A stretch of DNA of 64,000 bases from a virus (taxonomy: Duplodnaviria > Caudoviricetes). The stretch spans positions 1-64,000 of IMG/VR virus record IMGVR_UViG_3300031555_004309; one strand, written 5' to 3'. Both the position numbers and the translations under genes were made by a program. Of the stretch, positions 591 through 16,725 are shown in pieces; positions within the stretch are counted from its first letter, which is position 1, and the number at the start of each line of letters is the position of its first letter. The notes under the pieces are model-generated. The model searched no databases. It worked only from the letters and a program-made list of their open reading frames with translations, and was not told where the DNA came from.

Positions 591-593
591 ATA

Positions 594-680
594 TGGCGCG
601 GAGCGTTGTACTCGAAACAAACACCGTGAAGTGCGCATTGCTTAGCAGGCAAGCAGCAAGACCTCTTGCTTTCACTCCGC
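594..680 (-). tRNA. tRNA-Ser(GCT)
   Basis: Anticodon loop CTGCTAA; long variable arm; G73-CCA. Confidence 0.88.
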
Positions 681-683
681 ATA

Positions 684-1089: not shown

Positions 1090-1094
1090 ATATT

Positions 1095-1210
1095 TGGTAG
1101 TCTGCGCACCCAGCCGTACGACTACCGTGGGCCCTGTTTATTTATATACCGCTACAAAACGTAATTAAATCGTTAAACTGATCAAGTTGTCTGGCGGCCA
1201 TCCAGCGGTT
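1095..1210 (-). ncRNA. two non-tRNA structured elements between tRNA-Gly and tRNA-His (unassigned)
   Basis: ACCGCTG/TAGCGGT-closed multi-hairpin (about 1148-1209) and GGTAGTC/GACTACC hairpin ending in CCA (about 1095-1126). Confidence 0.4.
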
Positions 1211-1214
1211 AATA

Positions 1215-1685: not shown

Positions 1686-1764
1686 TGGTGGAGTATATGG
1701 GAATCGAACCCATCTGAATTTCTCCTTGCAAGGGAGACGACCACCCCAAGCAGTCCCATACCCC
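1686..1764 (-). tRNA. tRNA-Ala(TGC)
   Basis: G3:U70 pair; loop CTTGCAA; CCA; first tRNA of the operon. Confidence 0.92.
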
Positions 1765-1803
1765 AAATAAAAAAATCCTCCAGCGCTCTTGCACCAGAGG
1801 ATT
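1765..1803 (-). terminator. intrinsic terminator (attenuator) directly upstream of tRNA operon
   Basis: Minus strand AATCCTCTGGTGC-AAGA-GCGCTGGAGGATT followed by TTTTTATTT, ending at the first base of tRNA-Ala. Confidence 0.85.
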
Positions 1804-1828
1804 ACATCTATAAAATTAGACTATCTGC

Positions 1829-1936
1829 CTAACTTTTATCCTCTGATATATATAGAATATGATAAGGGCGTACTGAACTAAACCCACAATTCTTTGCGAG
1901 TTGAATGGCTTTTATTGTTCTCGTTTGCCACAACAT
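1829..1936 (-). CDS. 35-aa leader peptide MLWQTRTIKAIQLAKNCGFSSVRPYHILYISEDKS (putative attenuator)
   Basis: AAGGAGG RBS at 1946-1952; ATG...TAG; contains all 20 amino acids; 3' end forms an antiterminator with the downstream terminator. Confidence 0.8.
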   Translation of the reverse strand: MLWQTRTIKAIQLAKNCGFSSVRPYHILYISEDKS

Positions 1937-1969
1937 TGTTCAGTTCCTCCTTTTTCATTTTCTATATAT

Positions 1970-1998
1970 ATTATAACACGACTTCTTAAAAAAGTCAA
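1970..1998 (-). promoter_or_regulatory. sigma-A promoter of leader peptide/tRNA operon
   Basis: TTGACT-17 bp-TATAAT with extended -10 TG. Confidence 0.85.
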
Positions 1999-2249: not shown

Positions 2250-2363
2250 TTATTTTCTCCTCTTTAACATAATAATGGCTACTACCAGTTGTGCAATATT
2301 AACAAGAAGAATAAACAAGGAGAAATTTCCTGAATATGCTTCATTGATAATATTCCACAACAT
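2250..2363 (-). CDS. 37-aa membrane peptide
   Basis: MLWNIINEAYSGNFSLFILLVNIAQLVVAIIMLKRRK; GAGGTG RBS; sigma-A promoter at 2392-2420. Confidence 0.6.
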   Translation of the reverse strand: MLWNIINEAYSGNFSLFILLVNIAQLVVAIIMLKRRK

Positions 2364-2427: not shown

Positions 2428-3624
2428 TTATTCAACTGCCTTGAAGTTGTAAATAGGTACTATTCTTTCTATAATATCTACTGTTGGTTCAATAACAATC
2501 ATAATTTCTTCCATATCCTTATAAGCAAAAGGAGCTTCATCTATGGTGCCGACGCAGATAGTAGAAGAATATATCCCTTCCATTGAGTGTTGGAAATCCG
2601 CAAGAGTAATTTCCTTCTTGGCTTTTGCTCTTGACATAATACGACCTGCGCCGTGAGGTGCAGAGCAGTTCCAATCTTCATTACCCTTACCAACACAAAT
2701 CAATGAGCCATCTCTCATATTGAGAGGAATGATGCAAGTTTCTCCGCGTTGTGCAGAGATTGCGCCCTTACGGATTATGTTGTTTGTAAGGTCAATATAG
2801 TTATGGATTGAGTGGATAACAGTATCCGCTGCAGACCAGCCCATTAACTTCATCAATTCAAAAGACAATACTTGACGGTTCTTTCTTGCCCATTCTTGAC
2901 AAATCTTCATATCGTGGAGATAGTCTTGTGCGGCCGCGCCTTCTAAATAATCTAATTCAGAAGGATTATGGCGTGCTATCTTCTTTAATTCTTCTTGAAT
3001 ACGATATTCCTCACCTATTGACTTTAAATGGTTGATAAGTTCGAAACGGTCTTCATTATCAACTTCTGCCCAATGTTCTTGAGTACGAAGTTGATAAAAG
3101 TCTGCTACTTGCTTACCAAGATTACGAGAACCTGTATGAACAACAAGCCAATTATAGTTATCACCTTTATTAAGTTCTACAAAATGGTTGCCGCCACCCA
3201 AAGTACCGAGAGACTTGTATATCCAATCGTGATTCTTTAGGTTATCCCAGCAAAGAAGCCGAGAATATAAATCTTCTTGATATTCAGGAATAATAGCTTC
3301 CTCTCTTGCTGCGCGCCCAGACACTAATACCTTATGGCAGACTTCGTCAAACTTTTCAAGGTCTATTTCTTCCTTAAAAGGTATTGCTAAAACACCACAA
3401 CCTATATCTACACCCACTATATTTGGGCAGATCTTACCCTCATACTTCATTGTAGTGCCAATGACGCAACCTTTACCTGCGTGCGCATCTGGCATTATAC
3501 GAACATGAGCGTCTTCTCCTAAAGGAGAATTTGCAATAGATATAATTTGGCTTATTGCTTCTTGTTCTATTGTTTCTGCGAAGATTTTTACTTCGCCATA
3601 TTTTGAATTAAGTTCAAACATCAC
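2428..3624 (-). CDS. rtcB: RtcB family 3'-phosphate/5'-OH RNA ligase
   Basis: Motifs MPDAHAG, VGVDIGCG, GTLGGGNHF, HTGSR, HNY, RKGA, SAPHGAGR, DEAPFAYK. Confidence 0.95.
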   Translation of the reverse strand: MMFELNSKYGEVKIFAETIEQEAISQIISIANSPLGEDAHVRIMPDAHAGKGCVIGTTMKYEGKICPNIVGVDIGCGVLAIPFKEEIDLEKFDEVCHKVLVSGRAAREEAIIPEYQEDLYSRLLCWDNLKNHDWIYKSLGTLGGGNHFVELNKGDNYNWLVVHTGSRNLGKQVADFYQLRTQEHWAEVDNEDRFELINHLKSIGEEYRIQEELKKIARHNPSELDYLEGAAAQDYLHDMKICQEWARKNRQVLSFELMKLMGWSAADTVIHSIHNYIDLTNNIIRKGAISAQRGETCIIPLNMRDGSLICVGKGNEDWNCSAPHGAGRIMSRAKAKKEITLADFQHSMEGIYSSTICVGTIDEAPFAYKDMEEIMIVIEPTVDIIERIVPIYNFKAVE

Positions 3625-3903: not shown

Positions 3904-4295
3904 TATTTTTCCTCATTAAGATTTATATTTATTTGATATTCGTCTTGTATCACTGGTTGTGTACCTGTCATAAAATTTCGTATTGGTGTGTCTGTTTGTG
4001 TCATATAGGGCAAAGTACAATGACAAATACCTGAACCACCATTTGCAGGATTATTAGAACAATTCCTACAACATTCAGGCGAATTAAAAAATGAGCTGAG
4101 ATACCCCTGTTTAGAGATTTCCTTAAGAATTTCTATTTGTTCAGGATTTATGCTAATAGTTTTATCAGAAATGAGAACATGGGTTTGCCTTTGTTTAAGA
4201 GCCTCTATTGCAATATCAATGGCTTCGTCAAAAATCTCATTATCTATTTCTTCTTTTCCTAATTTTAAGAATTTTATTGCTTCTTGATCAGTCAT
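3903..4295 (-). CDS. hypothetical phage protein with Cys-rich motif
   Basis: MTxxEAI...AIDIAIEAL phage motif; CCRNCSNNPANGGSGICHC. Confidence 0.65.
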   Translation of the reverse strand: MTDQEAIKFLKLGKEEIDNEIFDEAIDIAIEALKQRQTHVLISDKTISINPEQIEILKEISKQGYLSSFFNSPECCRNCSNNPANGGSGICHCTLPYMTQTDTPIRNFMTGTQPVIQDEYQININLNEEK

Positions 4296-4458
4296 TCTTC
4301 GACCTCACTCTCAAACCATTTCTCACGATTTTCCCATAATTCTTGGTCTTTTTTGCTCGCTTTATAATCATACCATATACATTTAGTAATTATAATAAGA
4401 CATATTGTTCTAATAATCATAATTACAGACCACAAAATGAACATAAGTATTTGCTCTT

Positions 4459-4665
4459 TCATTTTGTTACCTCGCTTTCCATTCTTTTGTTCCATATCTC
4501 TACTTGTTTATATATATCTGTGTCAAGTGCAAATAGCCAAGTATTCGGTTCTATTTTACAACTCTTTTTATGAAACGCTGTAATATATGGGGTTTGCATT
4601 ACTACTCTTATATACGCCTCGCCGCCACAAAACGGACAAGGTTTCAAGGTAAATTCATTTTTCAT
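4459..4665 (-). CDS. Lar-family restriction alleviation / Zn-ribbon protein
   Basis: LKPCPFCGGEA...WNKR signature. Confidence 0.7.
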   Translation of the reverse strand: MKNEFTLKPCPFCGGEAYIRVVMQTPYITAFHKKSCKIEPNTWLFALDTDIYKQVEIWNKRMESEVTK

Positions 4666-5017
4666 TTTCTTCTACTCCTTTTATAGAATACTCATTGTAC
4701 CTTGCACAATCTACACAATATATATCTCCATAATACATATAATCTAAACAATCAATACAAGGAAAATCACAATAACTATCATTGGTATCTGTAATTACCT
4801 CGCTTTCCAATGGTTTGTTGGGCTTAATTCCCAAACTACTACAATAGTCTAAATAGTCATCAACTGCATTATGAAATTCCTCAACTATTTCTTTAGTTGT
4901 AGTGGCATGAAAGTTTACTAAATCGCTTATATATTCAATTTTGCCGTACAGAATTTTATCATCGGCGTCAAAATATATGCGAGTTGAGTATCCTTTATAT
5001 GATAAAATATTAGTCAT
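4655..5017 (-). CDS. HicB-family antitoxin-like protein (orphan)
   Basis: YKGY...LYGKIEYISDLVNFHA...EFHNAVDDYLDYC...PNKP; Cys-rich C-terminal extension. Confidence 0.8.
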   Translation of the reverse strand: MTNILSYKGYSTRIYFDADDKILYGKIEYISDLVNFHATTTKEIVEEFHNAVDDYLDYCSSLGIKPNKPLESEVITDTNDSYCDFPCIDCLDYMYYGDIYCVDCARYNEYSIKGVEENEK

Positions 5018-6541: not shown

Positions 6542-6619
6542 TGGGTGCGGAAGTGGGATTTGAACCCACGACATCCTGATAATGAGTCAGGTAGGCTGAC
6601 CAGACTGCCCCATTCCGCG
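6542..6619 (-). tRNA. tRNA-fMet(CAT)-like initiator, atypical
   Basis: C1:A72 mismatch, CGCGG 5' end, R11:Y24, CAT anticodon, CCA. Confidence 0.8.
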
Positions 6620-6639: not shown

Positions 6640-7440
6640 GGAAGAACGATTAGAATTCTCATTCTTAATAACTGACTTTCGTAGGATTATTTATTCCCTA
6701 CTTTTCCACTACCTTTTGGGCAGTATCAGTTGTGCCCGCAATATTTATAGTCCTTGCATCGGGACTCTAACAAATTACTACTCAATTTTGACTTCACTAC
6801 TAGTCTTGCGGACTATTCAGGTTGCTACACCTTATAGTTTCGTTTAAAGATTAAATAGAGGTTGCTTGCGACAAACTCTACTCCAGATTGTCTTGCACTC
6901 TGGAATTAGGACACTTTCGTAATTTGCGGCGATAGGCTTTTGCTTCTGTGGATCTAGTTAGATTTGAACTAACGCTTTATAGTTTAACAGACTATGGCTC
7001 TACCCGCTGAGCTATAAACCCTATTGACTTTAGACGAGCTACCGCAGTAGCTTACTATTCTTTTGGAGTAGCAAATACTACTCGCCTAAATACACTTTCA
7101 GCAACAACTTACTTATGCGGTAAATACCCTTATCGGATATATACTGGTTACCGCCCTTATTCGTTACAACTCGGACTAATTAACCTTCGGTTTTTCAGTA
7201 CCTTAACAAAATATTTAGCGTGACCTAGCCGCCAGCTAAACGGCACCAATTCAGTATCCCTCACAGATTTGCCTTGGGAATCCCTTTCGGTCTATTTTAT
7301 TAAGTTATCTCAGTTTCTTCTAAGCAGGGACATCATTTATGTCCCTCTGATTCTCGAATTGCTTGGGGTACCTCTTTCAAGGCGAAGTTTGTCAGCACTC
7401 CTTTCAGTTACTTGCGTAACCTTATCTGCCAAGCCAGAAG
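6640..7440 (-). ncRNA. GOLLD-like large RNA (about 800 nt, boundaries approximate)
   Basis: Long ORF-free structured region with own promoter; 3' half motifs CGAAAGTGT, AAGGTGTAGCAACCT, GAGTAG, CCAAAAGGTAGTGG, GGAATAAATAATCC match my recollection of GOLLD; embedded tRNA is known for GOLLD. Confidence 0.75.
6949..7021 (-). tRNA. tRNA-Asn(GTT) embedded in GOLLD-like RNA
   Basis: ATAGT-CTGTTAA-ACTAT; GTTCAAATC; no CCA. Confidence 0.85.
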
Positions 7441-11101: not shown

Positions 11102-11246
11102 ACTTAATCTCCTACTTGGGCGCCGCCCAAGATTTTTTTATTTTCATATCTAATTATATTTTACCACAAGATGCGAAAAAAGTCAAGCATTTAGCTTGAC
11201 TTTCTTCCTTTATACTAACAACCGCTAAGCTTGCCAGCACGATCGT

Positions 11247-15024: not shown

Positions 15025-15053
15025 ATTATATCATAAGTTCTTAAAAAAGTCAA
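15025..15053 (-). promoter_or_regulatory. sigma-A promoter of ROOL-like RNA
   Basis: TTGACT-17-TATAAT. Confidence 0.8.
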
Positions 15054-16688: not shown

Positions 16689-16725
16689 ATTATATTATAT
16701 CAGATTTTTTCTTTATTGTCAAATT

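Follow-up and report, generated by a model that had tools for sequence, protein, structure and literature searches.

A candidate ribosome-mediated transcription attenuator at the head of a phage tRNA operon

How phages control their tRNA genes is, to our knowledge, essentially unknown. The window, the whole stretch of 64,000 nucleotides analysed here (IMG/VR record IMGVR_UViG_3300031555_004309), comes from a gut-type phage of the Caudoviricetes in which an intrinsic terminator stands directly in front of a large tRNA array. Phage tRNA genes are now seen as sustaining translation when host tRNAs undergo degradation or cleavage by defence nucleases such as PARIS AriB (PMC12409363). What, then, decides whether RNA polymerase enters this array?

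The array occupies positions 32-1764 of the minus strand and was delineated with ARAGORN and the Rfam tRNA model. Its gene order is Ala-UGC, Phe-GAA, Ile-GAU, two CAU genes, Leu-CAA, Gly-GCC, His, Lys-UUU, Leu-UAG, Tyr, Trp, Ser-GCU-like, Lys-CUU, Val-UAC, Arg-UCU, Arg-ACG, Ser-UGA, and Cys; tRNAs for Glu and Asp are absent. ARAGORN called 16 tRNAs, and the Rfam model added Phe (1608-1681) and Tyr (766-849). The count of 19 tRNAs in the initial annotation is right only if the Ser(GCU)-like gene at 591-683 is accepted, because neither tool calls it. The first gene, tRNA-Ala(UGC), starts at 1764, one base past the T tract of the terminator. The only recognisable promoter for the array lies at 1970-1998. 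No minus-strand promoter was found within 1-1764, and between the terminator and tRNA-Ala there is neither room for a separate promoter nor a match to one. Since no other promoter is recognisable and the terminator abuts the first tRNA, expression of the array must pass the terminator. Among 28 arrays of at least four tRNAs in the phage loci examined, a terminator abuts the first tRNA only in three homologous ones.

The element ahead of the array is self-contained, with a length of ~235 nt and a leader transcript of ~200 nt, and all of its parts lie on the minus strand. The promoter (1970-1998) is an early, near-consensus promoter of the sigma-A/sigma-70 type, TTGACT-17-TGnTATAAT, with TTGACT at 1998-1993 and the -10 box at 1975-1970; it has 11 of 12 consensus matches plus the extended TG, and is one of ~25 near-consensus promoters in the genome. 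The 5' UTR (1937-1963) carries the Shine-Dalgarno (SD) sequence AAGGAGG (1952-1946) 9 nt ahead of the ATG of a 35-codon ORF (1829-1936; MLWQTRTIKAIQLAKNCGFSSVRPYHILYISEDKS), which ends in UAG at 1831-1829. The intrinsic terminator follows at 1765-1803, with a 13-bp stem (1803-1774), an AAGA loop, and a TTTTTTTATTT tract (1773-1765). The initial annotation had listed promoter, AAGGAGG, ORF, complementarity between ORF and terminator, terminator, and array, and every item was recovered at the minus-strand positions given here. RtcB is situated 0.6 kb upstream.

The unit of promoter, UTR, and SD matches the ordinary gene cassette of the phage, and the UTR differs hardly at all from the UTRs in front of other genes, such as at the promoter 11761-11733 and in L162. 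The non-coding RNA promoters of the phage, on the other hand, have no SD (GOLLD at 7500-7472; also 15053-15025). This difference, together with the spacing of SD and ATG, suggests that the leader ORF is translated. Its other five frames contain 1-3 stops each, and only 6% of composition-matched shuffles have an open leader frame. The first 9 nt of the ORF (ATGTTGTGG) are shared with a neighbouring 37-aa gene.

The leader RNA is predicted to fold into several helices. In helix P1, codons 20-29 (1852-1878) form the 3' strand and the 5' UTR the 5' strand, through ACUGAAC/GUUCAGU, AAGG/CCUU, and outer pairs, and the SD is partly buried. P1 encloses the hairpin P3 (1881-1902; AACUCGCAA-AGAA-UUGUGGGUU). 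Another hairpin, P4 (1812-1836; AAAGUUAGGC-AGAUA-GUCUAAUUUU), contains the stop codon. Single-sequence folds of three variants of the leader gave z-scores of -5.4, -4.5, and -6.5, and in the RNAalifold consensus 12 core P1 pairs are kept in 4/4 sequences.

Codons 30-33 (1838-1847; AUCAGAGGAU) are complementary to the 5' arm of the terminator (AUCCUCUGGU, 1802-1793), and can form an antiterminator of 10-11 bp with it. The duplex proposed originally stands, at 10 bp and -15.9 kcal/mol (P = 0.0065 against dinucleotide shuffles); in the three variants of the close lineage the values are -15.9, -17.0, and -16.0 kcal/mol (P = 0.001-0.0065). The proposal that AAAGUUAGGC/GUCUAAUUUU lengthens the antiterminator had to be dropped, as these strands are those of P4, a separate hairpin at the antiterminator apex that forms in both states. 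The antiterminator is the minimum-energy fold until the 3' arm of the terminator exists. The terminator state has -28.6 kcal/mol versus -20.5 for the antiterminator state (-28.2 versus -18.0 in the deep relative described below), and because the former is 8-10 kcal/mol more stable, read-through depends on kinetics. By geometry, a ribosome at UAG would cover the 5' arm of the antiterminator. The terminator stem starts 25 nt past the stop codon, which is far enough for a hairpin to form behind a terminating ribosome, judging from the distances at which termination was ~90% (28 bp) or <10% (5 bp) (PMC4824070). An anti-antiterminator with 1:2-type pairing was not found in the leader, where P1 stops beside the antiterminator arm without overlap; without translation, the default of this leader would thus be ON, in contrast to trp or vmlR.

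These features are consistent with a ribosome-mediated transcription attenuator heading the tRNA operon, a reading to which we give about even credence. A ribosome that loads during leader synthesis and is promptly at UAG would cover both the antiterminator arm and P4, the hairpin with the stop codon, after which the terminator would fold and most transcripts would stop ahead of the tRNAs. If the ribosome were late, stalled in about the first 25 codons, or never loaded, the arm would pair with the emerging 5' half of the terminator, RNA polymerase would enter the 19 tRNA genes, and RNase P would cut tRNA-Ala free of the leader. After transcription of codons 20-29, their pairing with the SD in P1 would limit further initiation. 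P4 may act as a pause hairpin, holding the polymerase and letting the ribosome catch up. B. subtilis shows runaway transcription (PMC13323073), and in a host of this kind a ribosome may seldom stay close to the polymerase unless the latter pauses. Overall, the switch would act as negative feedback, in which a decrease in translation capacity increases tRNA synthesis. Counted against the attenuator are the greater stability of the terminator state, the missing anti-antiterminator, the missing run of regulatory codons, the short antiterminator of the deep relative, the presence of only two independent lineages, and the lack of other arrays with an abutting terminator. If the attenuator operates as proposed, decoding speed would feed back directly on tRNA supply, and a textbook mechanism of amino-acid genes would also apply to the decoding machinery itself, and in a virus. 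Such an element could also serve as a compact sensor of translation capacity.

Matching leader/terminator/tRNA cassettes were not found in the literature. The nearest named systems are the amino-acid operon attenuators (trpL, hisL, leuL, pheL, thrL, and ilvL of enterobacteria; his leaders of bacilli, PMC2965389), which likewise have a translated leader ORF, a terminator ahead of the first gene, and an antiterminator sharing one terminator strand, with the ribosome position deciding the structure. The phage element has a short 5'-leader ORF with its own SD and start codon, an intrinsic terminator between this ORF and the first controlled gene, and an exclusive antiterminator that a ribosome at the ORF end could block. 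Unlike these attenuators, it has no 1:2-type anti-antiterminator, so that an untranslated leader should read through; it precedes tRNAs rather than biosynthetic enzymes, and it sits in a phage. It also contains no run or cluster of regulatory codons for a cognate amino acid, and its codon diversity is near the maximum; the only tandem residues, S20-S21, use different codons. Because there is no such run, sensitivity to any single tRNA should be low (the theme of PMC1183508). The trp-type attenuation named in the initial annotation is supported by the anatomy, the conservation in the deep relative, the geometry, and the gene cassette, while the sensor design based on all 20 amino acids fared less well, as discussed below.

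The vmlR and bmrCD leaders of B. subtilis, a Firmicute, resemble the phage leader in that uORF stalling switches terminator and antiterminator and in that they respond to the state of translation instead of a single amino acid; vmlR, a working precedent for such a switch, also has a hairpin at the antiterminator apex, a pause hairpin there and P4 here (PMC9226507). In those leaders, however, the uORF is tiny (3 codons in vmlR), lies in an anti-antiterminator, and is stalled by antibiotics, whereas in the phage the 3' end of a 35-codon ORF doubles as the antiterminator arm, and a tRNA array is controlled. The pyrBI leader of E. coli also senses something other than one amino acid, namely how closely the lead ribosome trails RNA polymerase; its ORF spans the terminator, and a close ribosome prevents termination. 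In the phage leader the ORF does not run into the terminator hairpin (stop at 1831-1829, stem from 1803), and the stop precedes the stem by 25 nt; a ribosome that arrives promptly should promote termination here, the opposite sign. The ermC-type leaders sense a general slowdown of translation with no amino-acid specificity (PMC2965389), but act on translation by unmasking a downstream SD, while tRNAs are untranslated and the output here is termination. T-box riboswitches of Gram-positive bacteria likewise report tRNA status by transcription antitermination; unlike the phage leader, they bind uncharged tRNA directly and need no ORF. A cmscan of 1760-2070 gave no T-box at E up to 10, the best matches being unrelated sRNA models (E >=0.28), and none of the curated Rfam cis-regulatory families exceeded 22 bits in 1765-1998, against gathering thresholds of 39-90.

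Five sequence variants of the leader were found. They belong to two lineages, ~95% and 76% identical to the window, the latter represented by the deep relative L250. The same array stands behind this leader also in L242, L250, L267, and L269. All variants keep the start codon, the open frame, the stop inside P4, the terminator, and the shared RNA fold. The same AUG is used in both lineages, and they differ in length by 6 nt, in frame. Despite the 76% identity elsewhere, L250 retains blocks of 25-29 nt with 100% identity. Seven one-sided changes were observed in P1, P3, P4, and the terminator, every one preserving the pairing; double compensatory changes were found at no pair in the two independent lineages. 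In L250, P3 has two such changes (G-U to A-U and A-U to G-U), and two adjacent terminator pairs swap G-C and G-U with the stem retained. All ten P4 pairs are kept in every variant, with G-U changed to A-U in L267 and L250. The antiterminator of L250 is reduced to a 6-bp core, CAGAGG/CCUCUG (-10.2 kcal/mol, P = 0.19).

The ORF of the close lineage has five non-synonymous changes and one synonymous change, and the L250 peptide has 45% identity. Because the changes are mostly non-synonymous, translation may matter and the product does not; purifying selection does not act on the peptide itself, as expected of a cis-acting leader. Its conserved residues, MLWQ and CGFSSVRP, coincide with conserved helix strands and show no synonymous change, and their conservation may reflect constraint on the RNA.

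Such neutral evolution of the peptide would also be expected if the mini-ORF were a relic of an early-gene cassette, the terminator trimmed the output of a very strong promoter into stable tRNAs by a fixed fraction, and the antiterminator complementarity had no regulatory role. That the cassette is the genome's generic one, that the leader shares its first nine nucleotides with the 37-aa neighbour, and that the modules form a mosaic agree with such a constitutive damper, as do the far greater stability of the terminator and the weak antiterminator of L250. On the other hand, a relic would hardly account for blocks of 25-29 nt that stay identical in a 76% identical leader, for a frame and a stop position that survive an in-frame indel, for the antiterminator complementarity in three variants (P = 0.001-0.0065), or for the highly stable, conserved fold. 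We consider a fixed damper unlikely; even then, the phage family would route all transcription of the array through a strong terminator.

The absence of synonymous changes from the conserved ORF segments points to constraint at the RNA level, and raises the alternative that P1/P3 is the binding site of a trans factor, which might be a tRNA, a small molecule, or a protein of phage or host, or that a phage antitermination factor overrides the terminator at a set time, with the ORF incidental. The conserved multi-helix fold, with P1 as its closing helix and an antiterminator/terminator platform behind it, is riboswitch-like, and the SD lies partly inside P1. However, neither an Rfam family nor a T-box matched at any E up to 10, the perfect SD and the AUG belong to a standard gene cassette whereas the real non-coding RNA promoters have no SD, and the ORF is open in both lineages. 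A switch or timer made of RNA only is rated as distinctly improbable.

The own promoter, SD, ORF, and terminator could also belong to an independent small gene that is merely located upstream of the array and encodes a micro-protein or a terminated sRNA of ~200 nt with a function in trans; a trans activity of released attenuator RNAs is known from rnTrpL (PMC6614838). The mostly non-synonymous changes argue against this, as do the lack of room for a separate array promoter after the terminator and the finding of a homologous peptide only in L250: a profile search of 1.84 billion proteins retrieved only the window's own peptide, that of L250, and two repeat proteins. We regard this explanation as very improbable. 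A 559-aa protein listed in the cluster of the peptide was unrelated. A degenerate tRNA was also rejected; the tblastn match of the peptide to tRNA-Leu of T5-like phages reached only E = 10, the alignment at the DNA level did not convince, and a cloverleaf is absent. Searches of IMG/VR for closer relatives through RtcB and a 271-aa neighbour yielded <=54% identity and another gene order, and five DNA patterns of the leader matched nothing in IMG/VR, or merely an odd tRNA-Ala in unrelated phages. GTDB genome scans returned nothing or two apparent chance matches, and loci reached from an 85-aa gene upstream of the L250 leader had no arrays.

For the attenuator, the high codon diversity of the leader would allow integration of overall decoding speed. 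The peptide contains all 20 amino acids, and its codons 1-26 comprise 25 distinct codons for 18 amino acids, as originally described. The chance level suggested for checking, that of all 20 in 35 codons, is about 0.001-0.002 (P = 1.2e-3 with genome amino-acid frequencies, 1.7e-3 with composition-matched shuffles), and among the 280 ORFs of 30-40 aa in the six frames of the genome, the leader alone reaches 20. The 25 distinct codons have P = 5e-4. In L250, 23 of 24 codons are distinct (P = 2.6e-3) and cover 18 amino-acid types (P = 2e-3). The complete set is not conserved, as L267 and L250 have 19 amino acids each and lack Pro and Asp, respectively. Moreover, the other five frames of the leader reach 14-19 amino-acid types, which means that high diversity arises from its base composition alone.

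The leader also covers much of the array: 16-17 of the 18 distinct anticodons read an internal leader codon, with P = 1e-5 to 5e-4 under genome codon usage and 9e-4 to 4e-3 against shuffles. Of the two exceptions named at first, Gly-GCC was confirmed, and CAU is one under strict wobble rules only. With the peptide fixed, codon choice favours array tRNAs (P ~0.02; 0.16 with loose wobble). Of the 35 codons, 9-13, according to the wobble rules applied, are unreadable by any array tRNA (Gln twice, Thr twice, Asn, Pro, Gly-GGG, Glu, and Asp; strict rules add AUA twice, GCC, and CUC). Glu and Asp occur only at codons 32-33, inside the antiterminator arm, and the array has no tRNA for either, in agreement with the earlier description. 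The comparison with related phages that had been proposed gave a divided answer: the short ORF and the fold are kept in L250, but only 12-15 of the 17 anticodons in its array find a codon in its leader (P = 0.02-0.25) and its antiterminator has 6 bp. The L250 leader keeps two Tyr codons although its array lacks tRNA-Tyr, and so leader and array do not co-vary.

A stricter version of the attenuator holds that selection gave the leader all amino acids and one codon for almost every array tRNA; loss of any single tRNA, through anticodon nucleases, toxins, or starvation, would then induce the array as a counter-defence. The all-20 composition, the distinct-codon counts in both lineages, the anticodon coverage, the codon preference, and the nearby RtcB favour this version. 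So do the positions outside the conserved core, where the amino-acid types missing from the core are provided by variable residues, 8 of 8 in the window (P = 0.017) and 7 of 8 in L250 (P = 0.10), with His and Tyr shifted between the lineages. However, the statistics are post hoc and come from effectively two lineages, and the strict version sits poorly with the losses of Pro and Asp, the lower coverage and unmatched Tyr codons of L250, and the diversity of the other frames. Helix strands with no nucleotide change account for the rare residues W, C, M, Q, R, and P, single codons should give a weak response, and a stall at the 9-13 codons without an array tRNA would induce unhelpful tRNAs. High codon diversity is therefore not regarded here as a demonstrated, selected "one codon per tRNA" design; we find the strict version doubtful, and only infer that induction of the array could have a counter-defence role. 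It is possible, but rather unlikely, that the leader was built for the purpose of sampling the tRNA pool, and that it belongs to a widespread undescribed attenuator class for phage tRNA arrays. The first 24-26 codons would then retain the greatest possible diversity and a match to the tRNA genes of the phage itself, and slowdown at almost any codon, for example through host anticodon nucleases, would turn on the whole 19-tRNA operon beside RtcB.

The best-supported reading of the leader at 1998-1765 (minus strand) is a ribosome-mediated attenuator of the tRNA array. The window covers the first 64 kb of one virus contig of 97,439 bp (G+C 34%), and the minus strand is the gene direction throughout the first 36 kb. 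On this strand, a promoter (TTGACT-17 nt-TGnTATAAT, 1998-1970) with 11 of 12 consensus matches and an extended TG is followed by a 5' UTR of ~26 nt with AAGGAGG at 1952-1946, a 35-codon ORF (ATG at 1936, UAG at 1831-1829), a small hairpin enclosing the UAG (P4, 1836-1812), and a terminator comprising a 13-bp stem with an AAGA loop (1803-1774) and a T tract (1773-1765). The first array gene, tRNA-Ala(UGC), starts at 1764; the elements thus occur in the order described in the initial annotation. Within the array there is no promoter match on the minus strand, and its first tRNA directly abuts the T tract, so that array transcription must all pass the terminator. Within 32-1764, 16 tRNAs are called by ARAGORN and two more, Phe and Tyr, by the Rfam tRNA model; neither tool calls a Ser(GCU)-like gene at 591-683 (minus strand). 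This spacer resembles a long-arm tRNA-Ser(GCU), and the spacers 273-353 and 1090-1214 (minus strand) are also without a tool call.

The proposed complementarity of AUCAGAGGAU (codons 30-33) to AUCCUCUGGU, the 5' half of the terminator, is confirmed in the window: the duplex energy of this arm against the upstream 133 nt (-15.9 kcal/mol) is reached by 0.65% of dinucleotide shuffles. Before the 3' half of the terminator exists, the minimum-energy fold (-20.5 kcal/mol) is the antiterminator, which carries the stop-codon hairpin at its apex; in the full sequence, the terminator is preferred (-28.6 kcal/mol). The fold of the entire leader is far more stable than those of shuffled sequences (z = -5.4). 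In its long-range helix, P1, codons 20-29 are paired to the SD region (AAGG, G, ACUGAAC) and the 5' end, and a hairpin, P3, sits within this helix. The terminator stem begins 25 nt past the stop codon. When the UAG occupies the A site, a ribosome footprint of ~28-30 nt spans the antiterminator arm and P4, and in tR2 experiments termination was ~90% at 28 bp from the stop codon and <10% at 5 bp (PMC4824070). Taken together, the footprint, the 25-nt gap and the tR2 distances suggest that a terminating ribosome should mask the antiterminator yet leave the terminator free to form. The arm stays free as long as the ribosomal P site has not moved beyond about codon 24-25, which agrees with the first 26 codons singled out in the initial annotation. 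Prompt translation of the leader to its end would favour termination; read-through would be favoured by a ribosome that is late or stalled, or by the lack of one.

The leader ORF is probably translated, judging from its genomic setting. About 25 near-consensus promoters in the genome, that of the leader among them, lead into a UTR of stereotyped sequence (ATAGAAAATAAAAAAGGAGG..ATG) and then a normal gene; the unit at 11761-11733 is almost identical to that of the leader, and in a relative (L162) a leader-type unit lies ahead of an ordinary gene. Promoters of non-coding RNA, e.g., that at 7500-7472 ahead of GOLLD, lack an SD. GOLLD RNA itself (RF02032, 196.9 bits, E=6e-55) is found at 6646-7090 (minus strand), with tRNA-Asn embedded in it (6948-7021) and tRNA-Met after it (6542-6619). 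The stretch 7500-6136 (minus strand), from the consensus promoter to a terminator at 6163-6136, is a putative non-coding unit of ~1.3 kb, because it contains neither an SD nor a convincing ORF. Near-consensus promoters at 11158-11186, 15025-15053 and 16694-16722 (minus strand), which have the usual UTR start and no SD plus ATG after it, may drive further non-coding RNAs.

No close kin were found in IMG/VR, and relatives were reached through a small DUF4314 protein encoded just upstream. Metagenome contigs with the same leader and array are L242-L247, L258 (identical to the window), L267/L268 and L269; L250, with a leader 76% identical, is the sole deep relative. The DUF4314 gene is 73% identical in L269, yet the leader is 97% identical, and in L250 the values are 86% and 76%. 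These discordant identities imply mosaic modules and recombination between promoter cassettes, so that only two independent lineages are represented in the data. Every variant retains the promoter, SD, same AUG, open frame, UAG within P4, terminator, and T tract abutting tRNA-Ala. The window's tRNA-Ala(UGC) (1686-1764, minus strand) is 79 nt long, has G3:U70, and is missed by the Rfam tRNA model, with only a weak tmRNA match (21 bits); its 17-nt 5' end also occurs in four IMG/VR contigs (L259-L262), three of them 157-307 kb, and an ordinary 76-nt tRNA-Ala occupies the corresponding site in L267 and L269.

The peptide differs from that of the window by S31P in L242 (plus one synonymous change), T5M, A10V, P24S and K34E in L267, and K34E in L269; that of L250 (MLWQRNYAHKNILTAICGFSSVRPFIYTEVIES, 33 residues) is 45% identical. 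Non-synonymous changes outnumber synonymous ones by five to one in the close lineage, so the peptide product is not under purifying selection. Nevertheless, the frame is retained despite an in-frame 6-nt length difference; each of the remaining five frames has 1-3 stops in all variants, and an open frame is seen in only 6% of shuffles matched in composition. RNAalifold on four variants recovers P1, P3, P4 and the terminator, with seven one-sided changes that all preserve pairing and no double compensatory change at any pair, and single-sequence folds of L250 and L242 show the same architecture (z = -4.5 and -6.5). The two blocks 100% identical between lineages, AAGGAGGAACTGAACAATGTTGTGGCAAA and TGTGGGTTTAGTTCAGTACGCCCTT, are strands of P1 and P3 and also encode MLWQ and CGFSSVRP, with zero synonymous differences; RNA constraint would therefore explain the conserved part of the peptide equally well. 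Antiterminator complementarity holds in the close lineage (9-11 bp, P=0.001-0.0065), but in L250 only a 6-bp core, CAGAGG/CCUCUG, is left (P=0.19).

The initial annotation regarded the leader as a tRNA-depletion sensor with all 20 amino acids. In statistics of diversity and coverage that are all post hoc, 20 types in 35 residues have P=1.2e-3 under genome amino-acid frequencies, 1.5e-4 when compared with real protein windows of 35 residues and 1.7e-3 with open shuffles matched in composition; no other of the 280 six-frame ORFs with 30-40 aa reaches 20 (runner-up, 18 types). Of the first 26 codons, 25 are distinct (P=5e-4); in L250, the first 24 comprise 23 distinct codons (P=2.6e-3) and 18 amino-acid types (P=2e-3). 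Of the 18 distinct array anticodons, 16-17 can decode at least one internal codon of the leader (expected, 10-11.5; P=1e-5 to 5e-4 by codon usage, 9e-4 to 4e-3 by shuffles; maximum among 5,226 real gene windows, 15); with the peptide fixed and synonymous codons resampled, P is about 0.02, or 0.16 with loose wobble. However, L267 has lost Pro and L250 lacks Asp, and L250 covers 12-15 of 17 of its own anticodons (P=0.02-0.25), keeping Tyr codons with no tRNA-Tyr in the array. Depending on wobble rules, 9-13 of the 35 leader codons have no array tRNA. Codon diversity recurs in L250, but other frames of the same RNA give 14-19 types, and the 15-residue core common to both lineages already gives 12, including W, C and M; given this core, the chance that variable positions supply the missing types is P=0.017 for the window and P=0.10 for L250. 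For these reasons, and since the statistics are post hoc, selected codon diversity is possible but rather doubtful.

The leader lacks the regulatory codon run of trp-type leaders, and also their anti-antiterminator, as P1 abuts the antiterminator arm without overlap. The closest working logic is that of Firmicutes uORF attenuators such as vmlR, in which a pause hairpin lies at the antiterminator apex (PMC9226507), as P4 does here. Rival readings are a fixed damper that carries a relic ORF, a switch that is RNA-only or depends on a factor, and a small gene independent of the array. Weak points of the attenuator reading are the energetic lead of the terminator (8-10 kcal/mol), the short L250 antiterminator, the restriction to two lineages, and the possible lag of ribosomes behind polymerase in many Gram-positive hosts (PMC13323073). 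Full-text literature searches turned up no report of tRNA genes, in phages or in bacteria, controlled by a leader-peptide attenuator. In Caulobacter phage phiCbK (L273, JX100813 47200-52700), three tRNA blocks have predicted terminators immediately ahead of them in the public annotation, and gp083, a 45-aa ORF, precedes a Pro-Pro-Lys-Lys-Leu-Leu-Leu-Ser-Ser block, with 23 of its 45 residues being Ser, Leu, Pro or Lys.

In the L242 lineage (L242 3999-4837), tRNA-Leu(CAA) is seemingly interrupted after ~25 nt by an insert with a 243-aa ORF (4106-4837), possibly a mobile element or an intron within the tRNA gene. A 37-aa ORF at 2250-2363 (minus strand) shares its first nine bases, ATGTTGTGG (MLW), with the leader ORF, and its counterpart in L250 comes directly after the array. 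Just upstream of this ORF is RtcB (398 aa, 2428-3624, minus strand), whose relatives in other phages also adjoin tRNA genes, in a different gene order.
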